This document shows positions 1-11,062 of a stretch of DNA of 64,000 nt, piece by piece. The position numbers and the translations under genes were made by a program. The notes below the pieces were generated by a model, which worked only from the letters and a program-made list of their open reading frames with translations, did no database searches and had not been told where the DNA came from. Numbering within the stretch: position 1 is the stretch's first letter; every line of letters begins with the position of its first letter. This DNA is from Thermoplasmatales archaeon (lineage in GTDB: Archaea > Thermoplasmatota > E2 > DHVEG-1), in NCBI GenBank assembly GCA_041305025.1, contig JBFYMG010000025.1, forward strand, positions 5,590-69,589, read 5' to 3'.

Positions 1-81
1 GTATCATAATCCTAATAAAGTGGTTTCAATATATACAACTTTAGAAAACTATAGTTGTGTATTATATAAAGAATTGATCTT

Positions 82-636
82 ATGGGAAAAATAACTAAAG
101 AAAATCTATTCAATCAGAAGGGTGCTGACTATTACAAGAACATACTGTTTTTTCTAGAGATGTATAAAGATAGGAAACTAGAACTGAAACACTTAAGATA
201 TATGTTAGTAAAATGTGACAAAAAACTATTGCCAAAGAAGTTAAAACAAAACATTAATGATTATCTAGATGCAGAGTTTGAAGACATTATAAGCAATGAC
301 TTGTTTTTAAGGGCATATGATGTTAAATGGATTTGTTTTAAGGAACAGAAGGATAAGAATGGCAATGTTGAAGGGGTTGCCTTTGATAAGGAGATCGATA
401 GTACCAATCTATTAACTTTTTATCTTAACCAGTTAATGAAATTAGAACTTATCTACAAAGTTTATTATAATGCCGATATAGAACATCCAGGTTATGCAAT
501 TACAGAAGATGGCAAGGATCTATTATACAATGCACTATCACACTTCATACTAGATAAGATGTATACTGGTAATGAAGCAAAAAAAGGGTTGATGCGTCTT
601 CTTTCTGGAAAACTAGCTAGTAAATCATATAAATGA
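82..636 (+). CDS. hypothetical protein (184 aa), no recognisable motifs
   Basis: Intact ORF with ATG start. K/E/Y-rich soluble protein with no motif I can assign. Confidence 0.4.
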   Translation: MGKITKENLFNQKGADYYKNILFFLEMYKDRKLELKHLRYMLVKCDKKLLPKKLKQNINDYLDAEFEDIISNDLFLRAYDVKWICFKEQKDKNGNVEGVAFDKEIDSTNLLTFYLNQLMKLELIYKVYYNADIEHPGYAITEDGKDLLYNALSHFILDKMYTGNEAKKGLMRLLSGKLASKSYK

Positions 637-733
637 GGCGTTTTAATAATTCAAATATTTGACCCAAAAGGTAATAAAACATTAAATTATTAGATATATG
701 TCATAGGACAAAGAGTGTTTATGACCTCAGACA

Positions 734-791
734 ACCAGGAGGTTGGCTTAGAAGCAGTCATCCTTTAAAGAAAGCGTAACAGCTCACTGGT
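734..791 (+). ncRNA. Isolated 23S rRNA-like fragment matching the GTPase-associated-centre (L11/L10-binding, helices 42-44) domain
   Basis: accaggaggttggcttagaagcagtcatcctttaaagaaagcgtaacagctcactggt matches my recollection of the minimal 58-nt L11-binding 23S rRNA domain (E. coli 1051-1108) at roughly 53 of 58 positions (identity estimated from memory, not counted). It lies in an intergenic spacer between convergent genes; no other rRNA sequence is nearby. Confidence 0.6.
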
Positions 792-889
792 CGAGGTTAT
801 ATGCCTTGAATTTGAAAAATAAGAATCATCAAGTTATAATGAGTATGGTTTTTACACTGATTTCATTTTAACAATTTTGATTAAATATT

Positions 890-1912
890 CTAAATATCCC
901 AACAGCTGCCTAATTCAGATTTTAGATCAGTTACAACATCATCTACGTTTTTGTTTTCTTCTGCACAATCTTTGAATTCGACGGGCTGAGAAATTAGTTG
1001 CCCTAATTGAGATACTAGGCATTTACCCATCCACTCCAGGTTGTAACCGCCTTCCAAGCTACATACTATTTTAGGTTGTATTTTTTGAAATTTAGATATC
1101 ATTTCTCCGAAAAAATTAGAGGTAATTTTCAGACCGCCGAGAGGGTCAAGATGATGAGAATCAAAACCCGCTGAAATTAATATTATATCAGGTTTAAATT
1201 GGTGAGCAATGGGAAGAAAAACCTCATCAAAGAGTATTGAAACTGCTTTGTCTCCGTTGCCATAGGCAAGAGGGGCGTTTATTGTATATCCAAGTCCTTG
1301 GCCCGTTCCTATTTCCTGTGCATCTCCAGTTCCGGGATAATGGGAAGATAGATGAAACGATTGATACAATACGTCTTTTCTACCGTAAAATATACTTTGA
1401 GTGCCATTTCCGTGGTGAACATCATGATCGAAGATGAGGACTTTTTTTCCGAGTTTTGAAGTCTCATTTGCAGCTATGGCGACGTTATTAAAAAGACAGA
1501 AGCCCATGGATCTATCAGCGGTTGCATGGTGCCCGGGAGGTCTTACCAATGCAAAGGCATTATCTGCTTTTCCCTTGAGTACATCTTTGCTCATCTGAAC
1601 TAGTCCTCCTGCTGCAAGTCTTGCTACATTGTAGGAACATTCGCAAACATAAGTATCCATATCAAGCCACCCACCACCATCGGAACTTATTTCTTTCACT
1701 AGTTGAATCATTTCCTCAGAATGTACTGATTTCAGCACTTCTTCTTGTAAAATCTTTGGTTCAATGAATTCAAGATTTTTGTAAAAAGGTGCTTTTTTAA
1801 TTTCTTTAATTATGGCTTGTAGTCGTTTTGAATTCTCAGGGTGACTTGGATTGTCGTGTCTGTTGTATTTCTCCGAGTAGACTATCTGAGTGGTCATATT
1901 CGAAACCAGCAA
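890..1912 (-). CDS. Histone deacetylase / acetoin-utilisation (AcuC) family deacetylase
   Basis: RPPGHHA motif, FDHDVHHGNGTQ motif, GFCLFNNVAIAA and a glycine-rich C-terminal loop; typical length of 340 aa. Confidence 0.88.
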   Translation of the reverse strand: MLVSNMTTQIVYSEKYNRHDNPSHPENSKRLQAIIKEIKKAPFYKNLEFIEPKILQEEVLKSVHSEEMIQLVKEISSDGGGWLDMDTYVCECSYNVARLAAGGLVQMSKDVLKGKADNAFALVRPPGHHATADRSMGFCLFNNVAIAANETSKLGKKVLIFDHDVHHGNGTQSIFYGRKDVLYQSFHLSSHYPGTGDAQEIGTGQGLGYTINAPLAYGNGDKAVSILFDEVFLPIAHQFKPDIILISAGFDSHHLDPLGGLKITSNFFGEMISKFQKIQPKIVCSLEGGYNLEWMGKCLVSQLGQLISQPVEFKDCAEENKNVDDVVTDLKSELGSCWDI

Positions 1913-2006
1913 ATGAAGTATAATAACCAGATATAAAACTATTCTAATAATTTAAGTATAATATAGTGTATTGTGGGTAATTAATTGAATTGGGGGTAAA
2001 TGATTA

Positions 2007-4874
2007 ATGGATGATATGTTACTTGGCATTTCACCTGAGTTTTTATATTTCCATAAAATGCCTCCAAAAAAAGTATCAGATCTTCATAGACCGTATTTTT
2101 TGGCTTTTTGTCCTAAAGACAAAAATATAGAAAATACTAGAAAGGAACTTTTAAGAAAATGGGAAGCAAAAACATCGGAAGAAGACGCTCTGTCCAAAAT
2201 AGAAGAAATCGGTGAAGTTGAAAACCATAGAAGTTTCTGGGACGTCAAAAGCACAAGGAATGTGTTTAGGGTTTATACTAAAAAATCTTATTTTGTTCCA
2301 GACGTAAGCGATCATTTATTCTTCAACCATGGTTTCTATACAGCAGAGCACGACATACCATATCATCAAAGAGCCCTGGTAGATTTAGCAGTGGAAAACA
2401 AAGCTTGGATTTTTGATACAAGTGGAGAAAAAAAGAAACTCAAAGTTTTAATTTACGACATAGAAATTACGCAATACGAAGAAGGGAAAAAAGATTTACC
2501 GATCGACATAATTGGTTATTCTAACTTTGATATTTTATTTGAATCGGATAAAAATTTAGAAAACGAAGAATTTTATTTTGACATCCTAGACTGCCCGTCT
2601 GGCTGGGAAGATATGGAAGTTAACCAACTTATTTCGCGTAATGTTGACGAAGAGGTAGAAAACCTCCACGCGATGTGTAAACTATTAGGGGAACATGACA
2701 TTATATCTGGGCATAATATCGCAGGTTTTGACAACTTCCATATGTATGGAAGGATAAACTGGATTTTAAGAACTTGTCACGATAAACTTTCTAACGATGA
2801 AAGAAAAACCTTCCAAGAGTTTATAGAAAAATATACTCGCCTAGACAAATCTTTCCATTTCGGTGTCGGTTCAGAAGTTGTACAATTTTATCCATCCAGT
2901 TTTGATACTTATCTTGCGGCAAGAAAATTTTATTCTTTTTTAGATGAATTCAGTCTCAAGACACTAGCTCCTTTTCTAAATGTAATAGTGAAGGATCGTA
3001 TTCTTTTGACTCCATCCCAGATAAAAATAGATGCTAGAACGTTAAAATACAACAAACAAGATGTGCTGGAGCAAATTGGCGTAACGCTTAATCTAATCCA
3101 GCAGGCATTGCCACTTGCATTTACTACATGTATGCCTTTTGATATGCTGCTTCCGTCCGGAGCTGTAAATATTTGGGACCATATGGCGCTTATAAGAGGG
3201 GCCACCCAAAAGAAAATCATGCCACCCATCTGTCGAGTTAAGTCTGTTTCGCAGACATTACTGAGAGATTTTAGGGGATGCAACACAAGGGAAGAAATAG
3301 TAAAATCGGCTAAGAAAAAAAGAGAACAACTTTCTAAAGATTTTTTACGGGTTTTGAAATACGGAGAAGAAATGCCCGAGTGGGTTGAATACCCTTATGT
3401 AATCCATAATGAACGCGCAGAGGATGCAGATGAATCGTTGAATTACCACATGCCTGGCGGCATGACAATAAAACCTGACAAAGAAGCACATTCTCATTTT
3501 ATTCCTTGGTATCATGTAGTTGTCGCCGATGTTGGTGCGATGTATCCGACGATTCTCAAAGCAATGAATGTCGGTGCAGATACGGTACGGCTGGCTACAA
3601 AAGTCGAAAAGCCTGACGATTGGATATGGTTGAAAAAACTTCCTGAGGAATTTTTTAAAAATAGAGACGTGAATTGGAGGAAAGTTACTGAAGATGATTC
3701 ATTTGCAGATAAAGGGTTCATGCTGGGTATAAAAATCGATAGTAATCCAGGAGTGGTAAATCTTGCTATGACTGGTATTATGAACATGATTGCAAAAACA
3801 AAAAAAGAACTTAAGAAAGCAAAAGAAAAGGGAGATAAATTAGAGCTGCAAAGACTGAAGATGATGTATCAAAGTATGAAGGGCGCTCGTAATGCTGGAA
3901 CTCATGGGATTTTAGCTGCACCAACTGTAACTGGACGGCAGTTCAATCTTTGGGGTGCTGCAGCAATTACTACAAAAGGCCAGATGATACTTTCAGATAC
4001 ATTAAATTATCTTGAAAACAGAAATATTCGCGTTGTTTACGGCGATACCGATGGAATTTATTTGGGATGCTCGAGGTCTGCAGGAAACTTACCTGAATTT
4101 TCAAAGGCATTAGGACTTTCCATAAATCAGGATGATAAAACGTGGTTGACCAAACCCGAAGTTGCCATCGCTGCAATTGAGCAGTGCAACAAAAAATGGC
4201 AGAATGATCTTAAGTATCCTGATTTTGAATTAGAACCCGAAATTCATGATGGGATGATCTTTGTCAAACATAAGAATTACCTCATTTTTGATGTAAAAGA
4301 TGGCAAAATTGAGCTGACAACAAAGGGTAACAACTTTAAAGGTTCAGACAAAGCAAATATTGCGCGTAAAGTGCTCGAAAATATAATGATGGGTGTTTTG
4401 AAAGATAATCCTTGTTGGGATGATGAAGAAAAAGCAAGAAAGGCGATAAAAAATAGTATTATGAGTAAAACGAAAGACAGTCTTTTAAAACTAGATTTAT
4501 CACAGGTAGATATCAATGATTTGACATTGATTCAATCCGTTCAACCTTCTAAACGATATAAGACAATTCGAGATGGGTCAACGTCCGTATTTGGTAAACG
4601 CTCTGCAGCATTGGAAAAACTTATTGACCAGCAAATAAAAACCCGTATAAAAATGAAGTTTGTTGTTACGAAAAGACCGCTTCCGGGCATTATGAATCCT
4701 TCAAAGAGTGGTGTTAAACCTATCGATTATATGTATCCGGTGGATCTTTTAAAAGATGTAAAAGAAATCGATCTTGAATGGTACAAAAAGATGATTGAAA
4801 ATTATATAGAGGGAGCATTTGGTCTTTCAGATATTTCAGCAACAGAACAAAAAGGTCTTGATGCTTGGATGTAG
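2007..4874 (+). CDS. polB: Family B DNA polymerase (PolB), no intein
   Basis: Exo I motif LIYDIEI, motif A region DVGAMYPTIL, motif C YGDTDGIYL, KKKY-like region; 955 aa. Confidence 0.85.
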   Translation: MDDMLLGISPEFLYFHKMPPKKVSDLHRPYFLAFCPKDKNIENTRKELLRKWEAKTSEEDALSKIEEIGEVENHRSFWDVKSTRNVFRVYTKKSYFVPDVSDHLFFNHGFYTAEHDIPYHQRALVDLAVENKAWIFDTSGEKKKLKVLIYDIEITQYEEGKKDLPIDIIGYSNFDILFESDKNLENEEFYFDILDCPSGWEDMEVNQLISRNVDEEVENLHAMCKLLGEHDIISGHNIAGFDNFHMYGRINWILRTCHDKLSNDERKTFQEFIEKYTRLDKSFHFGVGSEVVQFYPSSFDTYLAARKFYSFLDEFSLKTLAPFLNVIVKDRILLTPSQIKIDARTLKYNKQDVLEQIGVTLNLIQQALPLAFTTCMPFDMLLPSGAVNIWDHMALIRGATQKKIMPPICRVKSVSQTLLRDFRGCNTREEIVKSAKKKREQLSKDFLRVLKYGEEMPEWVEYPYVIHNERAEDADESLNYHMPGGMTIKPDKEAHSHFIPWYHVVVADVGAMYPTILKAMNVGADTVRLATKVEKPDDWIWLKKLPEEFFKNRDVNWRKVTEDDSFADKGFMLGIKIDSNPGVVNLAMTGIMNMIAKTKKELKKAKEKGDKLELQRLKMMYQSMKGARNAGTHGILAAPTVTGRQFNLWGAAAITTKGQMILSDTLNYLENRNIRVVYGDTDGIYLGCSRSAGNLPEFSKALGLSINQDDKTWLTKPEVAIAAIEQCNKKWQNDLKYPDFELEPEIHDGMIFVKHKNYLIFDVKDGKIELTTKGNNFKGSDKANIARKVLENIMMGVLKDNPCWDDEEKARKAIKNSIMSKTKDSLLKLDLSQVDINDLTLIQSVQPSKRYKTIRDGSTSVFGKRSAALEKLIDQQIKTRIKMKFVVTKRPLPGIMNPSKSGVKPIDYMYPVDLLKDVKEIDLEWYKKMIENYIEGAFGLSDISATEQKGLDAWM

Positions 4875-5120
4875 TTGCCCCCGTTATTTAAAAATTCAAC
4901 AGGAGAAAAATTCAAGAGAAAACTATTTATTCAAAAATGATATTATTATAGCGGGGGACTAGAGAGTATATTGGGGAGGTATCTTTAAGTACCTGCTTTC
5001 CACTTAGAGGCACATTCCTCCTATCAATGCATCCCGTCCCCCACCTATCCATCACTTACTTTTTATTTATAAAATATAGCTATTGTTTTTCTTTTTGTCT
5101 TTAAATAAACTTAAAAATTG

Positions 5121-5134
5121 AAAAATAAAAAAAA
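5121..5134 (-). terminator. Oligo-T tract (on minus strand) downstream of rpl12, inside an 8-bp inverted repeat (5118-5125 / 5142-5149)
   Basis: Plus-strand A-run aaaaataaaaaaaa corresponds to a minus-strand T-run about 80 nt after the rpl12 stop. Archaeal termination typically occurs at oligo-T. Confidence 0.35.
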
Positions 5135-5215
5135 GGTTGTTTTTTCAACAAATAGGAGCAACTTGGTTTTTTTTGTCGCCCAAAATTTGTTGAAACAACA
5201 AATGATGTTAATGCT

Positions 5216-5530
5216 TTATCCGAATAATGCGCCTAGGCCTGCTGCTGCCTCTTCTTCAGAGACTTCTTCTTTCTTTTCTTTCTTTTTTCCTTCGGTTTTT
5301 TTGTCAGCAGACGCTTCTCCAGATGCTGCGGGTGCTGGTGCAGCGGCCACTGGAATTGCAGCTGTCTTGATGGCTTCATCGATGTTTACTCCATCTAAAG
5401 ATGCCACCAATGCTTTAATTCTTGATTCATCTGCTTTCACGCCAGCGGCAGTGAGAACTTTTTTTACATGTTCTTCTGTAATCTTCTGGCCTGCGGAATG
5501 AAGAAGCATTGCGCTGTATATATATTCCAT
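5216..5530 (-). CDS. rpl12: 50S ribosomal protein L12 (P1-type stalk protein)
   Basis: [20 protein letters not shown]... with alanine-rich hinge, acidic KE tail and C-terminal GLGALFG; canonical archaeal L12. Confidence 0.92.
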
Positions 5531-5545
5531 TTCTTTTTCCTCCTG

Positions 5546-6433
5546 TTATGTTATCATTTTCTTTAAATCTTCATCTAATGCATCCTTTGCACTCGATGCC
5601 AAGGCTAGCATGCCTCCATGCGCCTTTGAAACTAAATTTTTAATTGTTTCTTTTGTAATTATATTTCTTTCCATTGCAAGTATAAAAGCGTGGTTATGCG
5701 CCTTATGTAGCAAGGGCTTAATCGTTAGTTTGTTGGTCCAAGCAGATTCTATTGCGAGGTTAAATGCATAGCTTGATGCCTGATGCATTTTTGCTTTGAA
5801 TTCATCAATATTAATGTCCAGAACGTCTGATTTAAAGATACTTCCATTCTCATAAACTCCGTGAAGAGTCATGCCTATTTCTATCGGGTATATCTCAAGT
5901 CTAGTGAGCATTTGTGCAATATCTGCAGGAATCTTTTTTCCAGCAGGAACAAGGACCTTATCGTTTTTAATGACAACTTTTCCCTCTTGAATTGCAGCAG
6001 GAATACCTGCTTTTTGTAATTCTCCAACAATGGGTCCTGGTTTAAACGGCGTATCTCCGGCTTTTACCTCGATATCGTGTGCTGCTGTTTCTCCACCTTT
6101 TGCAGGTGCCATTGTTCGGGTGGCTTTAACATGCCCAAAAAGTTTAAACGGATTCATATCTGTTGCAATAATTGCAGCTTGACCGTTCACCATGCTTTTC
6201 AATTCATTGATGCCTTTTACTTTTTTTTCAGCTTCGTCAAGTGCCCTCAAAATTAGAGTATTTTTTGCCGAACGAATTACTGTTTCAGTCTCATTGAGAT
6301 TTTTCCTCATTCTTTGCATCTGCGGAGATGGAATGCCACCGATTTCGACAATTCCAATTACCTTTTTATTTGTTAAAAGATGGGTAATCTCCTTTACTTC
6401 TCCGTGCTTCCAGTCTGAAACGTGAGCTGTCAT
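5546..6433 (-). CDS. rpl10: 50S ribosomal protein L10 (P0)
   Basis: Position in the L1-L10-L12 operon; 295 aa, N-terminal rRNA-binding-like domain and acidic C-terminus (DEDLKKMIT). Confidence 0.88.
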   Translation of the reverse strand: MTAHVSDWKHGEVKEITHLLTNKKVIGIVEIGGIPSPQMQRMRKNLNETETVIRSAKNTLILRALDEAEKKVKGINELKSMVNGQAAIIATDMNPFKLFGHVKATRTMAPAKGGETAAHDIEVKAGDTPFKPGPIVGELQKAGIPAAIQEGKVVIKNDKVLVPAGKKIPADIAQMLTRLEIYPIEIGMTLHGVYENGSIFKSDVLDINIDEFKAKMHQASSYAFNLAIESAWTNKLTIKPLLHKAHNHAFILAMERNIITKETIKNLVSKAHGGMLALASSAKDALDEDLKKMIT

Positions 6434-6443
6434 TACTATCCCC

Positions 6444-7094
6444 CTAAATTACCCGTTCTGATGGCCCCATTGTGGTCTTAACATGTATAGAGCCTATGTT
6501 CATTCGTCCTTTTTCCAATTTTTGTTCAATTCGTTTGATAATTGCATCTATGTTATCCGCAATGTTTTCTTTGGACATTTCTTCATTACCAACAATTGTA
6601 TGAAAAGTCTTAGTCTTGGCTCGAATCTTTACAGTATTGCGTAGATTTTTCACTAAACCAGAGATATCAGCATTTGGAGGCACTGGCCTGGGCATTTTCC
6701 CCCTTGGACCTAAAACAGTACCTAGTGTTTTACCAATTGTTGGCATGAGAGGGGCTTCGGCTATAAAGAAGTCGTGCGCTTCGGCTATCTTTTTAAACTT
6801 CTTTTTATCTTTGGAAAGATCCCCGATCTCCTCTGGCTTAATTAACAAGTCAACATGAGTCTTTGATTTAACGGCAAGCTCACCACTTGCAAAAAGAGCG
6901 ATTTTTGCCACACTGCCTCTACCATGGGGCAGGATTATTTCTTCCTCAAGACGATTCTTAGGATTATTCAAATCTATGTTTTTCAGGTTTACAACTAGAT
7001 CTACGTTTTGTTTGAATTTTCTTTCAAGCTTCTTAGATTCTTCTAAGATTTTGCTAACTACTTCTACAGTTTTTTTGTCCGTCATAGACATCAT
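6444..7094 (-). CDS. rpl1: 50S ribosomal protein L1
   Basis: 216 aa. Conserved L1 features (HGRG loop, GKTLGTVLGPRGKMP), immediately upstream of rpl10. Confidence 0.9.
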   Translation of the reverse strand: MMSMTDKKTVEVVSKILEESKKLERKFKQNVDLVVNLKNIDLNNPKNRLEEEIILPHGRGSVAKIALFASGELAVKSKTHVDLLIKPEEIGDLSKDKKKFKKIAEAHDFFIAEAPLMPTIGKTLGTVLGPRGKMPRPVPPNADISGLVKNLRNTVKIRAKTKTFHTIVGNEEMSKENIADNIDAIIKRIEQKLEKGRMNIGSIHVKTTMGPSERVI

Positions 7095-9561: not shown

Positions 9562-9634
9562 GCGGGTGTAGTGTAGTCTGGTATCACTTAAGCTTGCCAA
9601 GCTTAAAACTCGGGTTCAAATCCCGGCGCCCGCA
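9562..9634 (+). tRNA. tRNA-Gly (anticodon GCC)
   Basis: Manual cloverleaf: acceptor GCGGGTG/CGCCCGC; anticodon stem TAAGC/GCTTA with loop TTGCCAA; T-arm CTCGGGTTCAAATCCCGG; no encoded CCA; 73 nt. Confidence 0.85.
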
Positions 9635-9660
9635 TTTTTAGTAACCTAAGGGAGCATGAA

Positions 9661-10599: not shown

Positions 10600-11062
10600 A
10601 ATCGTAAGTACCTTCATCAATTGCTTTCTGAATCTCTTGTGGCCTTTTCCCTTCCACAGTTATGCCCATCGACACACAGGTTCCTATGATTTCCTTTGTT
10701 TTCTTCTTAAGATTTTTGCCTAGAAGATTGCTGTGTTTCATCTTGGCAACTTTTATCGCTTGATCCACAGTGAGATTTCCTATTTTTTTGGTGGACGGAG
10801 CACCTGAACCTTTCTCCAGCTTGAGTTCATTAAGAATCAACGATGATGCTGGAGGTGTACCTACCTCGACTTCAAATTTTTTCGTCTTTGGATCAACAAT
10901 AACTTTCACTGGAACTTTCATTCCATCAAATTGCTTGGTTTTTTCGTTGATTGTATTGACGATCTGTATTATGTTTACACCCAGTGGACCAAGTGCTGGA
11001 CCAAGTGGTGGGCCTGCGGATGCTTTTCCTCCGTCAACAAGTGCTTTAATTGTATCTGCCAT
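10583..11062 (-). CDS. rpl11: 50S ribosomal protein L11
   Basis: GGKASAGPPLGPALGPLGVNI signature; 159 aa. Confidence 0.92.
   Translation of the reverse strand: MADTIKALVDGGKASAGPPLGPALGPLGVNIIQIVNTINEKTKQFDGMKVPVKVIVDPKTKKFEVEVGTPPASSLILNELKLEKGSGAPSTKKIGNLTVDQAIKVAKMKHSNLLGKNLKKKTKEIIGTCVSMGITVEGKRPQEIQKAIDEGTYDSKFQS

Follow-up and report, generated by a model that had tools for sequence, protein, structure and literature searches.

Why should a piece of 23S ribosomal RNA stand alone between two protein-coding genes? This question is raised by a 64,000-nt stretch of DNA from a Thermoplasmatales archaeon (GenBank assembly GCA_041305025.1, contig JBFYMG010000025.1, positions 5,590 to 69,589 of the forward strand), which is called the window below and whose own numbering is used for its features. 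A first-pass annotation, made from the letters of the window, had placed in one of its intergenic spacers a free-standing copy of the GTPase-associated centre of 23S rRNA, that is, the domain of helices 42 to 44 (H42–H44) to which uL11 and uL10/P0 bind. The identification was right, and the element is truly homologous to the native 23S H42–H44 domain. On balance it is probable that the element represents a piece of a Thermoplasmata 23S gene (H42–H44 with flanks) that was captured by a mobile cassette of ~1.1 kb and is carried by it as a young passenger.

Identity and extent of the rRNA fragment

The quoted segment was found at 734–791 of the plus strand, where it forms the counterpart of the 58-nt L11-binding domain of Escherichia coli (1051–1108). 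The two were counted to be identical at 53 of 58 positions, as the first-pass annotation had estimated, and they differ by substitutions only, at E. coli positions 1051, 1058, 1075, 1080 and 1097. When a small region around the segment was scanned with Rfam, window positions 713–817 (+) matched positions 1071–1175 of the large-subunit (LSU) rRNA model, corresponding to H42–H44, with 86.9 bits (E = 2e-26). Alignment by blastn to 23S genes of the lineage gave 97.3% identity over 112 nt for 699–810 (23S of loci L091, L093 and L096) and 92.9% over 127 nt for 684–810 (23S of the L088 type). A core at 711–810 is identical to the real 23S of the lineage at 99 of 100 positions, and the similarity continues more weakly back to 684 and for a few bases past 810. 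The 23S-derived fragment was delimited on this basis at 684–816 (+), with degenerate edges at 684–710 on the 5' side and 811–816 on the 3' side, and its size is roughly 115–130 bases overall. It had been described as exactly the minimal 58-nt unit, but the copy takes in the whole of H42, with the kink-turn 42 region, as well as flanking 23S bases.

In the Rfam LSU alignment with its structure line, H42 (including its AGACA/CGAG internal loop), H43 and H44 make up a three-way junction at 713–807 (+), and the minimum-free-energy fold likewise gave the H42 stem, H43 and the H44 hairpin. H44 has its native form (GAAAGCGUAACAGCUCAC), and no tRNA adjoins the element. The sole difference of the window strain from real 23S within the core is a strain-specific T at 758 (+), equivalent to C1075U of E. 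coli, by which the H43 pair G1063–C1075 becomes G·U; a C occupies this position in 23 of 23 real 23S genes and in strains L138, L142, L143 and L081. The element is thus nearly identical to the native GTPase-associated centre (H42–H44 including kink-turn 42, the site of uL11 and uL10/P0) in sequence and in predicted secondary structure, but it lies outside any 23S gene, in cassette DNA, with a complete 23S elsewhere.

As the first-pass annotation had also stated, the fragment sits between convergent open reading frames (ORFs), at 82–636 (+) and 890–1912 (−). A blast search of the 64-kb window with 23 real rRNA loci gave no other rRNA-derived sequence, which agrees with the earlier remark that no other rRNA was nearby. 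Both junctions of the fragment are with non-rRNA DNA, and in this sense the further statement, that the element is not the remnant of an rRNA operon, holds. Rfam scans of 50–64 kb, in gathering mode or E-value mode, missed the 87-bit LSU fragment that was found by a 350-nt scan, the cause being the speed filters. The Rfam-negative scan of loci L001–L006 was accordingly distrusted, and blastn and nhmmer were used in its place. Rfam scans at window scale systematically overlook short rRNA fragments.

Insertion and mobility of the cassette

The surroundings of the fragment were compared with three relatives of ~91% nucleotide identity to the window (L107, L108 and L109) by aligning to them a composite of the window and contig L136, which extends it upstream. 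Relative to all three, the window genome carries an insertion of 1,097 nt. The relatives match the composite up to the stop codon of a gene of 99 amino acids (aa) and then again from window position 875, and the two matched segments share 11 nt of the relatives' sequence; in them the 99-aa gene is joined directly to the deacetylase gene (890–1912), and these two convergent genes are 5 nt apart. The first 223 nt of the cassette lie upstream of window position 1, and the part within the window occupies 1–874 (+). A direct repeat, TTTTGATTAAA, probably a target or attachment (att) site duplication, is found at both ends: the right copy is at 875–885, and the left copy lies at the stop codon of the 99-aa gene, 1,108 nt farther upstream and beyond the start of the window. 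The repeat is ~17 bp long and imperfect in other strains (TTTTGATT[G/A]AATATT[T/C]T), and a single copy is present in the cassette-free relatives.

From left to right, the cassette consists of a degenerate ribbon-helix-helix-like ORF (read from L081 and L136), a gene of 184 codons named ORF184 (82–636, +), a 62-nt spacer, the rRNA fragment and a tail of ~63 nt, which folds into a hairpin ending in five U residues (U5). ORF184 is its only sizeable ORF. Neither a recombinase gene (transposase or integrase) nor terminal inverted repeats were found in the cassette; because it has neither, it must be mobilised in trans or by recombination. The fragment itself was considered as the att site of an integrative element and was rejected in this role, as the boundary repeat TTTTGATTAAA is unrelated to it and the fragment ends ~64 nt inside the cassette. 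Partial att-site duplicates of tRNA or transfer-messenger RNA genes and rRNA pseudogene fragments also combine a partial copy of a stable RNA with inserted DNA bounded by repeats; here, in contrast, the boundary repeat is an unrelated 11–17-mer, the rRNA piece is internal both to the cassette and to 23S, and no intact gene stands at the other end.

Among the lineages compared, the site is empty in L107, L108 and L109 and filled in the window genome, L138, L141, L142 and L143. In 10 pairwise comparisons among five host lineages, ORF184 was 96.7–98.4% identical, whereas the adjacent chromosomal genes were 87.1–92.5% identical. Since the cassette gene is far less diverged than its chromosomal flanks, the cassette is mobile, and from these comparisons it appears to have moved between lineages or swept through them, always at the same site. 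By sliding-window identity, the window genome is equally distant (~90–91%) from the cassette-bearing L138 and the cassette-free L107. Three of four signs of a mobile insertion were present, the fourth being the recombinase or terminal inverted repeats of its own. Searches near the deacetylase gene in 80 related genome loci, among 23 metagenome matches and in IMG/VR viral contigs gave no other free-standing copy of this kind. The first-pass annotation had counted a lack of conservation in relatives among the findings that would speak against it, and this applies by half, the element being confined to carriers of the cassette. Among the origins it had offered, a recombination scar comes nearest to the result, with the difference that the fragment is the cargo of an inserted cassette.

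Explanations for the fragment and its persistence

On the explanation preferred here, a piece of a Thermoplasmata 23S gene comprising H42–H44 and a few flanking bases would have been captured as cargo by the cassette. The cassette is inserted between the stop codons of the two convergent chromosomal genes, with duplication of an 11–17-bp target, and has spread among related lineages, at this site in every case. Ribosomes do not need the fragment, because the real 23S retains its own copy of H42–H44. If it is transcribed at all, the fragment would form the 3' portion of the ORF184 mRNA or start from a TATA-like box ~25 nt upstream. The RNA would be expected to adopt the fold of the native domain in the cell and might then be bound by free uL11 and P0, which we would regard as a side effect and not as a function. 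The intactness of the fragment would be due mainly to the youth of the cassette, since its variability (3 of 127 sites) is at the same rate as that of the four-fold degenerate sites of ORF184 (1 of 45); these and the following counts rest on a handful of strains and on three substitutions in all. An earlier estimate of strong constraint, in which ~15 substitutions were expected from the NG86 synonymous divergence (dS) and 2 were seen, was withdrawn, the four-fold degenerate sites being equally invariant.

A different role is conceivable, and we rate it as possible but doubtful: the fragment may be an expressed small RNA, or a domain in a 3' untranslated region, that is selected for presenting the surface of the native domain. 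The cassette or its host might profit from such a decoy if it sequestered free uL11 or the P0–P1 stalk, or if it drew off an agent that attacks the rRNA site, be it a toxin, a thiopeptide-type antibiotic, or a nuclease or modifying enzyme of a defence system. A stalk-titrating small RNA had also been among the options of the first-pass annotation, and it is conceivable. The Tre23 toxin reportedly ADP-ribosylates 23S rRNA, at a site that is said to lie in helix 44, and a toxin target in this domain would make a decoy plausible in principle. Several observations weigh in favour of this role and against a passenger that is carried without use. The fragment is less variable than the adjoining spacers (2 of 127 versus 10 of 111 sites; Fisher p = 0.014) and tends to be less variable than the third codon positions of ORF184 (3 of 127 versus 14 of 184; p = 0.07). 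The window has C758U and L138 has C725U, the two substitutions that fall within helices; both change a G–C pair to G·U and keep the helix. Only three variable sites were found in the block 672–832, which reaches beyond the 23S homology; with this extent, the conservation of the block cannot be due in its entirety to gene conversion from the real 23S. Moreover, useless cargo would be expected to be lost from a cassette that has spread, and this cassette is both conserved and mobile, with an ORF184 that is under purifying selection.

Putative expression signals were counted on the same side. A candidate promoter resembling a transcription factor B recognition element and TATA box (AAAAC-ATTAAATTATTAG) lies at 676–693 (+), with a predicted start near 709–713, at the foot of H42. 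Its 12-mer TTAAATTATTAG occurs twice in the 64-kb window, at 682–693 (+) and at 1944–1955 (−), where 0.06 matches are expected by chance; the second copy precedes the deacetylase gene, within the divergent promoter region of this gene and polB. The first copy is placed ~25 nt before H42, a fitting distance, and the hairpin ending in U5 follows downstream of the fragment. No site varies among the strains at 672–694, and part of the TATA-like box derives from decayed 23S sequence. Set against these points are the equality of the fragment with four-fold degenerate sites, the small number of strains and substitutions, and the lack of a comparable free-standing copy in the related loci, metagenome matches and viral contigs named above; in addition, a contig with a 58%-identical ORF184 homologue (L082) stops before the position of the fragment. 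Selection on the fragment RNA is thus unproven.

A further argument for a decoy, and against a passenger, came from phages, which independently keep mimics of the same domain. Scanning of IMG/VR with the H43 sequence gave 26 phage loci that are not 23S genes (L110–L135), for example L110:6640-6820, L128:1605-1775 and L113:61-275 on viral contigs. These share an architecture in which a variable 5' strand is followed by GGAGGUNGGCUUAGAAGCAGCCAUCCUUUAAAGAGU, an insert of 80–330 nt, the sequence YUUUGGCGUAAYAGCACAC and a 3' strand complementary to the 5' strand. The insert forms an extra helix within the 5' strand of H44, after which the box GCGUAAYAGCACAC stands. Among 19 distinct sequences, compensatory changes were observed in 10 of 10 closing H42-like pairs and in 2 of 2 pairs at the base of the insert helix. 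Paired cells amounted to 91.6%, compared with 72.7% in shuffled alignments, and none of 500 shuffles reached the observed covariation score. The invariance of H43 among these loci is by construction, H43 being the search pattern. tRNA genes are present in 21 of the 26 loci, and the element, which usually has the orientation of the tRNAs around it in arrays of large phages, often lies between two co-oriented tRNAs in a large array; in L110 it stands between tRNA-Glu and tRNA-Val in an array of 35 tRNAs. The phage mimic is clearly under selection. Rfam 15 holds no family for it, and literature searches returned no description of this family or of free-standing copies of the H42–H44 domain; the phage RNA family is apparently undescribed.

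Like the window element, the phage RNAs are free-standing H42–H43–H44 junctions on mobile elements. They differ from it in being diverged and covarying, in having the extra H44 helix and the GCACAC box, and in lying among tRNAs, whereas the window element is an unmodified, recent copy from the host lineage beside a protein gene; the marks of the phage family (extra H44 helix, GCGUAAYAGCACAC box, position in a tRNA array) are absent from it. The two are distinct objects, yet the phage family shows that mobile elements do maintain mimics of this domain. A broader proposal, which we think rather unlikely, would join them: mobile elements may repeatedly recruit free-standing copies of the domain as decoys, the cassette being a fresh archaeal case (a captured host H42–H44 with its own TATA box and terminator) and the phage RNAs an old and elaborated bacterial one, both serving to titrate stalk proteins or to absorb attackers. 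The existence of the phage RNAs makes it worth testing whether the cassette fragment is expressed and selected. If it were, no earlier case of a free-standing RNA of this domain that acts outside the ribosome would be known from archaea, and the fragment would offer a natural tool for studying the roles of free uL11, of P0 or of domain-targeting factors in cells. If the fragment is a passenger only, it still provides a clean and datable example, from uncultured archaea, of how a small, site-specific cassette captures an rRNA domain.

It is improbable that the fragment serves as a structural 3' end, the rRNA domain and the U5-ending hairpin together stabilising or terminating the ORF184 message and insulating it from the convergent deacetylase gene. 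The fragment is co-oriented with ORF184 and begins 62 nt downstream of it, with no run of at least five T between the ORF184 stop and the fragment. At 813–854, moreover, folding of 710–856 revealed a run of five A (A5), a hairpin (820–854) and the U5 run (849–853), a layout suggestive of a bidirectional terminator, which here stands between convergent genes that lie 5 nt apart where the cassette is absent. No terminator was flagged at this hairpin by a consensus scan, which is built for bacterial signals, the stem having too few G–C pairs. Against such a role, the U5-ending hairpin would suffice alone, and the specific rRNA sequence would not be required.

Control of the ribosomal-protein genes by the fragment is very improbable. 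The first-pass annotation had correctly noted that the rpl1-rpl10-rpl12 operon lies ~4.4 kb away and had considered the element as a mimic for feedback control of rpl11 or rpl10. Autoregulatory rRNA mimics of this kind are known from the bacterial rplJ leader, which is bound by L10(L12)4, and from the L1 site in the Methanococcus L1-L10-L12 mRNA; they resemble the window element as non-ribosomal RNAs with ribosomal-protein binding determinants, and the sequence of the element contains the complete determinants for uL11 and P0. However, such mimics are diverged, lie inside the mRNA that they regulate and are conserved with the operon, whereas the window element copies the domain almost exactly, belongs to a different strand and transcription unit, is borne by a cassette and is missing in close relatives. 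The genes rpl12, rpl10 (encoding P0) and rpl1 are at 5216–7094 (−), and the whole block from polB through rpl1 spans 2007–7094. The element is encoded on the other strand from the operon, polB and the deacetylase gene intervene, and no ribosomal-protein mRNA leader contains it. Relatives of ~91% nucleotide identity with the same operon are devoid of it; in L107, rpl10 and rpl12 lie beside polB and the deacetylase gene, and the element is absent. Its arrival on a mobile cassette also argues against such a regulatory role. The proximity to the operon is an accident of the landing site, because the target of the cassette happens to lie there.

That the arrangement is an artefact of assembly in the contig of the window is scarcely credible, despite two circumstances that would favour one. 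The fragment and the real 23S have ~100 nt in common, a classic cause of misjoins, and Logan contigs from the source sample break inside the fragment: L136 and L137 are 100% identical to window positions 1–740 and L106 to 781–4805, so that the breaks fall at 740 and 781, where branching of the k-mer assembly graph into a second copy would be expected to place them. On the other hand, the two junctions recur in assemblies made independently from other samples and strains, each strain with single-nucleotide polymorphisms of its own (L138, L142 and L143). The junction of ORF184 with the fragment was seen in L081, L136, L137, L138, L142 and L143, and that of the fragment with the deacetylase gene in L106 and L138. 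L138, an 80.5-kb contig of another strain, has ORF184, the fragment and the deacetylase gene in the same order; L142 ends 30 nt past the fragment and L143 inside it, and both confirm the ORF184 side only. Genes flanking on both sides are also syntenic neighbours in the cassette-free relatives: those upstream of the window start, read from L136, encode an M48 peptidase, a NosD/PKD protein, a CTP-transferase-like protein and the 99-aa protein, and the same genes directly adjoin the deacetylase gene in L107, L108 and L109. An assembly chimera with a real 23S gene, which the first-pass annotation had named as what would overturn its reading, therefore fails as an objection, the arrangement being reproduced in independent long assemblies.

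A chimera of this kind does exist in one public contig. L081 (ENA ERZ27247700, k141_2467374, assembled with MEGAHIT) agrees with the window at every position of the ORF, the spacer and the fragment up to window position 806, after which genuine 23S follows. Its fragment is of the cassette type on the 5' side (GGACAAAG) and goes over on the 3' side into 23S of the L092 type; because of this combination, L081 is judged from its sequence to be a chimera joined across the ~96-nt shared stretch (its positions 851–946). The practical warning is that an rRNA repeat of 100 nt is enough to break a metagenome assembly or to misjoin it.

The real 23S was followed in JGI metagenomes by exact matching with the lineage-specific 5' strand of H42 (ATGACCTCAGACAACCAGGAGG), which gave 23 contigs; in all 23 the match belongs to a genuine 23S gene, in which H42–H44 is preceded and followed by normal 23S sequence. 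In two of the loci, L092 and L097, Rfam identified full-length archaeal 23S (model positions 1–2987) in 16S-tRNA-23S-5S operons. The ORF184 variant of L138 (P0130) is recorded on a JGI contig of 297,631 nt, and the contig of the L092 rRNA operon is also 297,631 nt long; since the two are equal in size, one genome very probably holds both the free-standing fragment and an intact 23S. A real 23S near the far end of the window was also sought via flank homology, and no consistent synteny was found. The 23S genes at L092:5942-9559 and L097:2248-5868 measure ~3,620 nt against the 2,987 positions of the model, which corresponds to roughly 600 nt of insertions or expansions.

Fragmented or permuted rRNA genes are known from organelles and some bacteria, and a circularly permuted 23S RNA from Pyrococcus; they resemble the present case in that an rRNA domain is encoded apart, and differ from it in that here the main gene of the lineage is complete and the piece redundant. 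A split 23S, with the domain supplied in trans or the gene broken at H42, has next to no probability and was rejected: the direct joining of ORF184 and the fragment to genuine downstream 23S in L081, which would suggest it, is the chimera described above, the 23S genes of L092 and L097 are full-length with their own H42–H44, the context is normal up- and downstream in 23 of 23 real genes with this H42, and the long cassette contigs L138 (to the deacetylase gene) and L142 (for 30 nt past the fragment) run into cassette spacer and not into 23S.

ORF184 and the neighbouring genes

The protein of 184 residues encoded by ORF184 is restricted to the lineage and gives a weak winged-helix signal. No significant match was found in Pfam or PHROGs (PADLOC was not searched), and no ORF184 was found in viral contigs. 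Both ORF184 and its 58%-identical homologue matched the Sso10a family of NCBIfam weakly, below the family cutoff, and a profile search retrieved only six relatives among 1.84 billion representatives, one of them with a weak HTH_45 match. The AlphaFold model was unusable, with a predicted local distance difference test (pLDDT) score of 36. The ratio of nonsynonymous to synonymous divergence (dN/dS) was 0.06–0.27, and the purifying selection invoked above is read from these sequence comparisons. Upstream of ORF184, the motif TATAGTTGTGTATTAT lies at 50–66 (+) and recurs upstream of the homologue in L082; it may act as an operator or promoter. Beside this homologue, L082 carries a small ribbon-helix-helix (CopG-like) ORF (L082:2-203, −), which overlaps another ORF in a toxin-antitoxin-like arrangement; the window cassette, when compared with it, retains only a degenerate version.

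The gene at 890–1912 (−), a chromosomal neighbour outside the cassette, belongs to the histone-deacetylase family (Pfam PF00850, E = 9.6e-87), and the best matches of its protein were to metagenome-assembled genomes of Thermoplasmatales or Thermoplasmata, at no more than 68% identity. Beside the deacetylase gene, the polB gene of L107 (L107:1692-5891) encodes 1,399 aa with intein and LAGLIDADG matches, and that of the window encodes 955 aa without an intein. At the right end of the cassette, a motif (GGTTTTTACACTGATTTCATTT) is found at 847–868 (+), in a single copy in the window. In L138 it is present twice (9632–9651 and 10768–10787), the additional copy being ~100 nt inside the left end of the cassette, and likewise in L139 and L140. 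The doubling of this motif suggests a composite or tandem structure of the cassette in strains of the L138 type.

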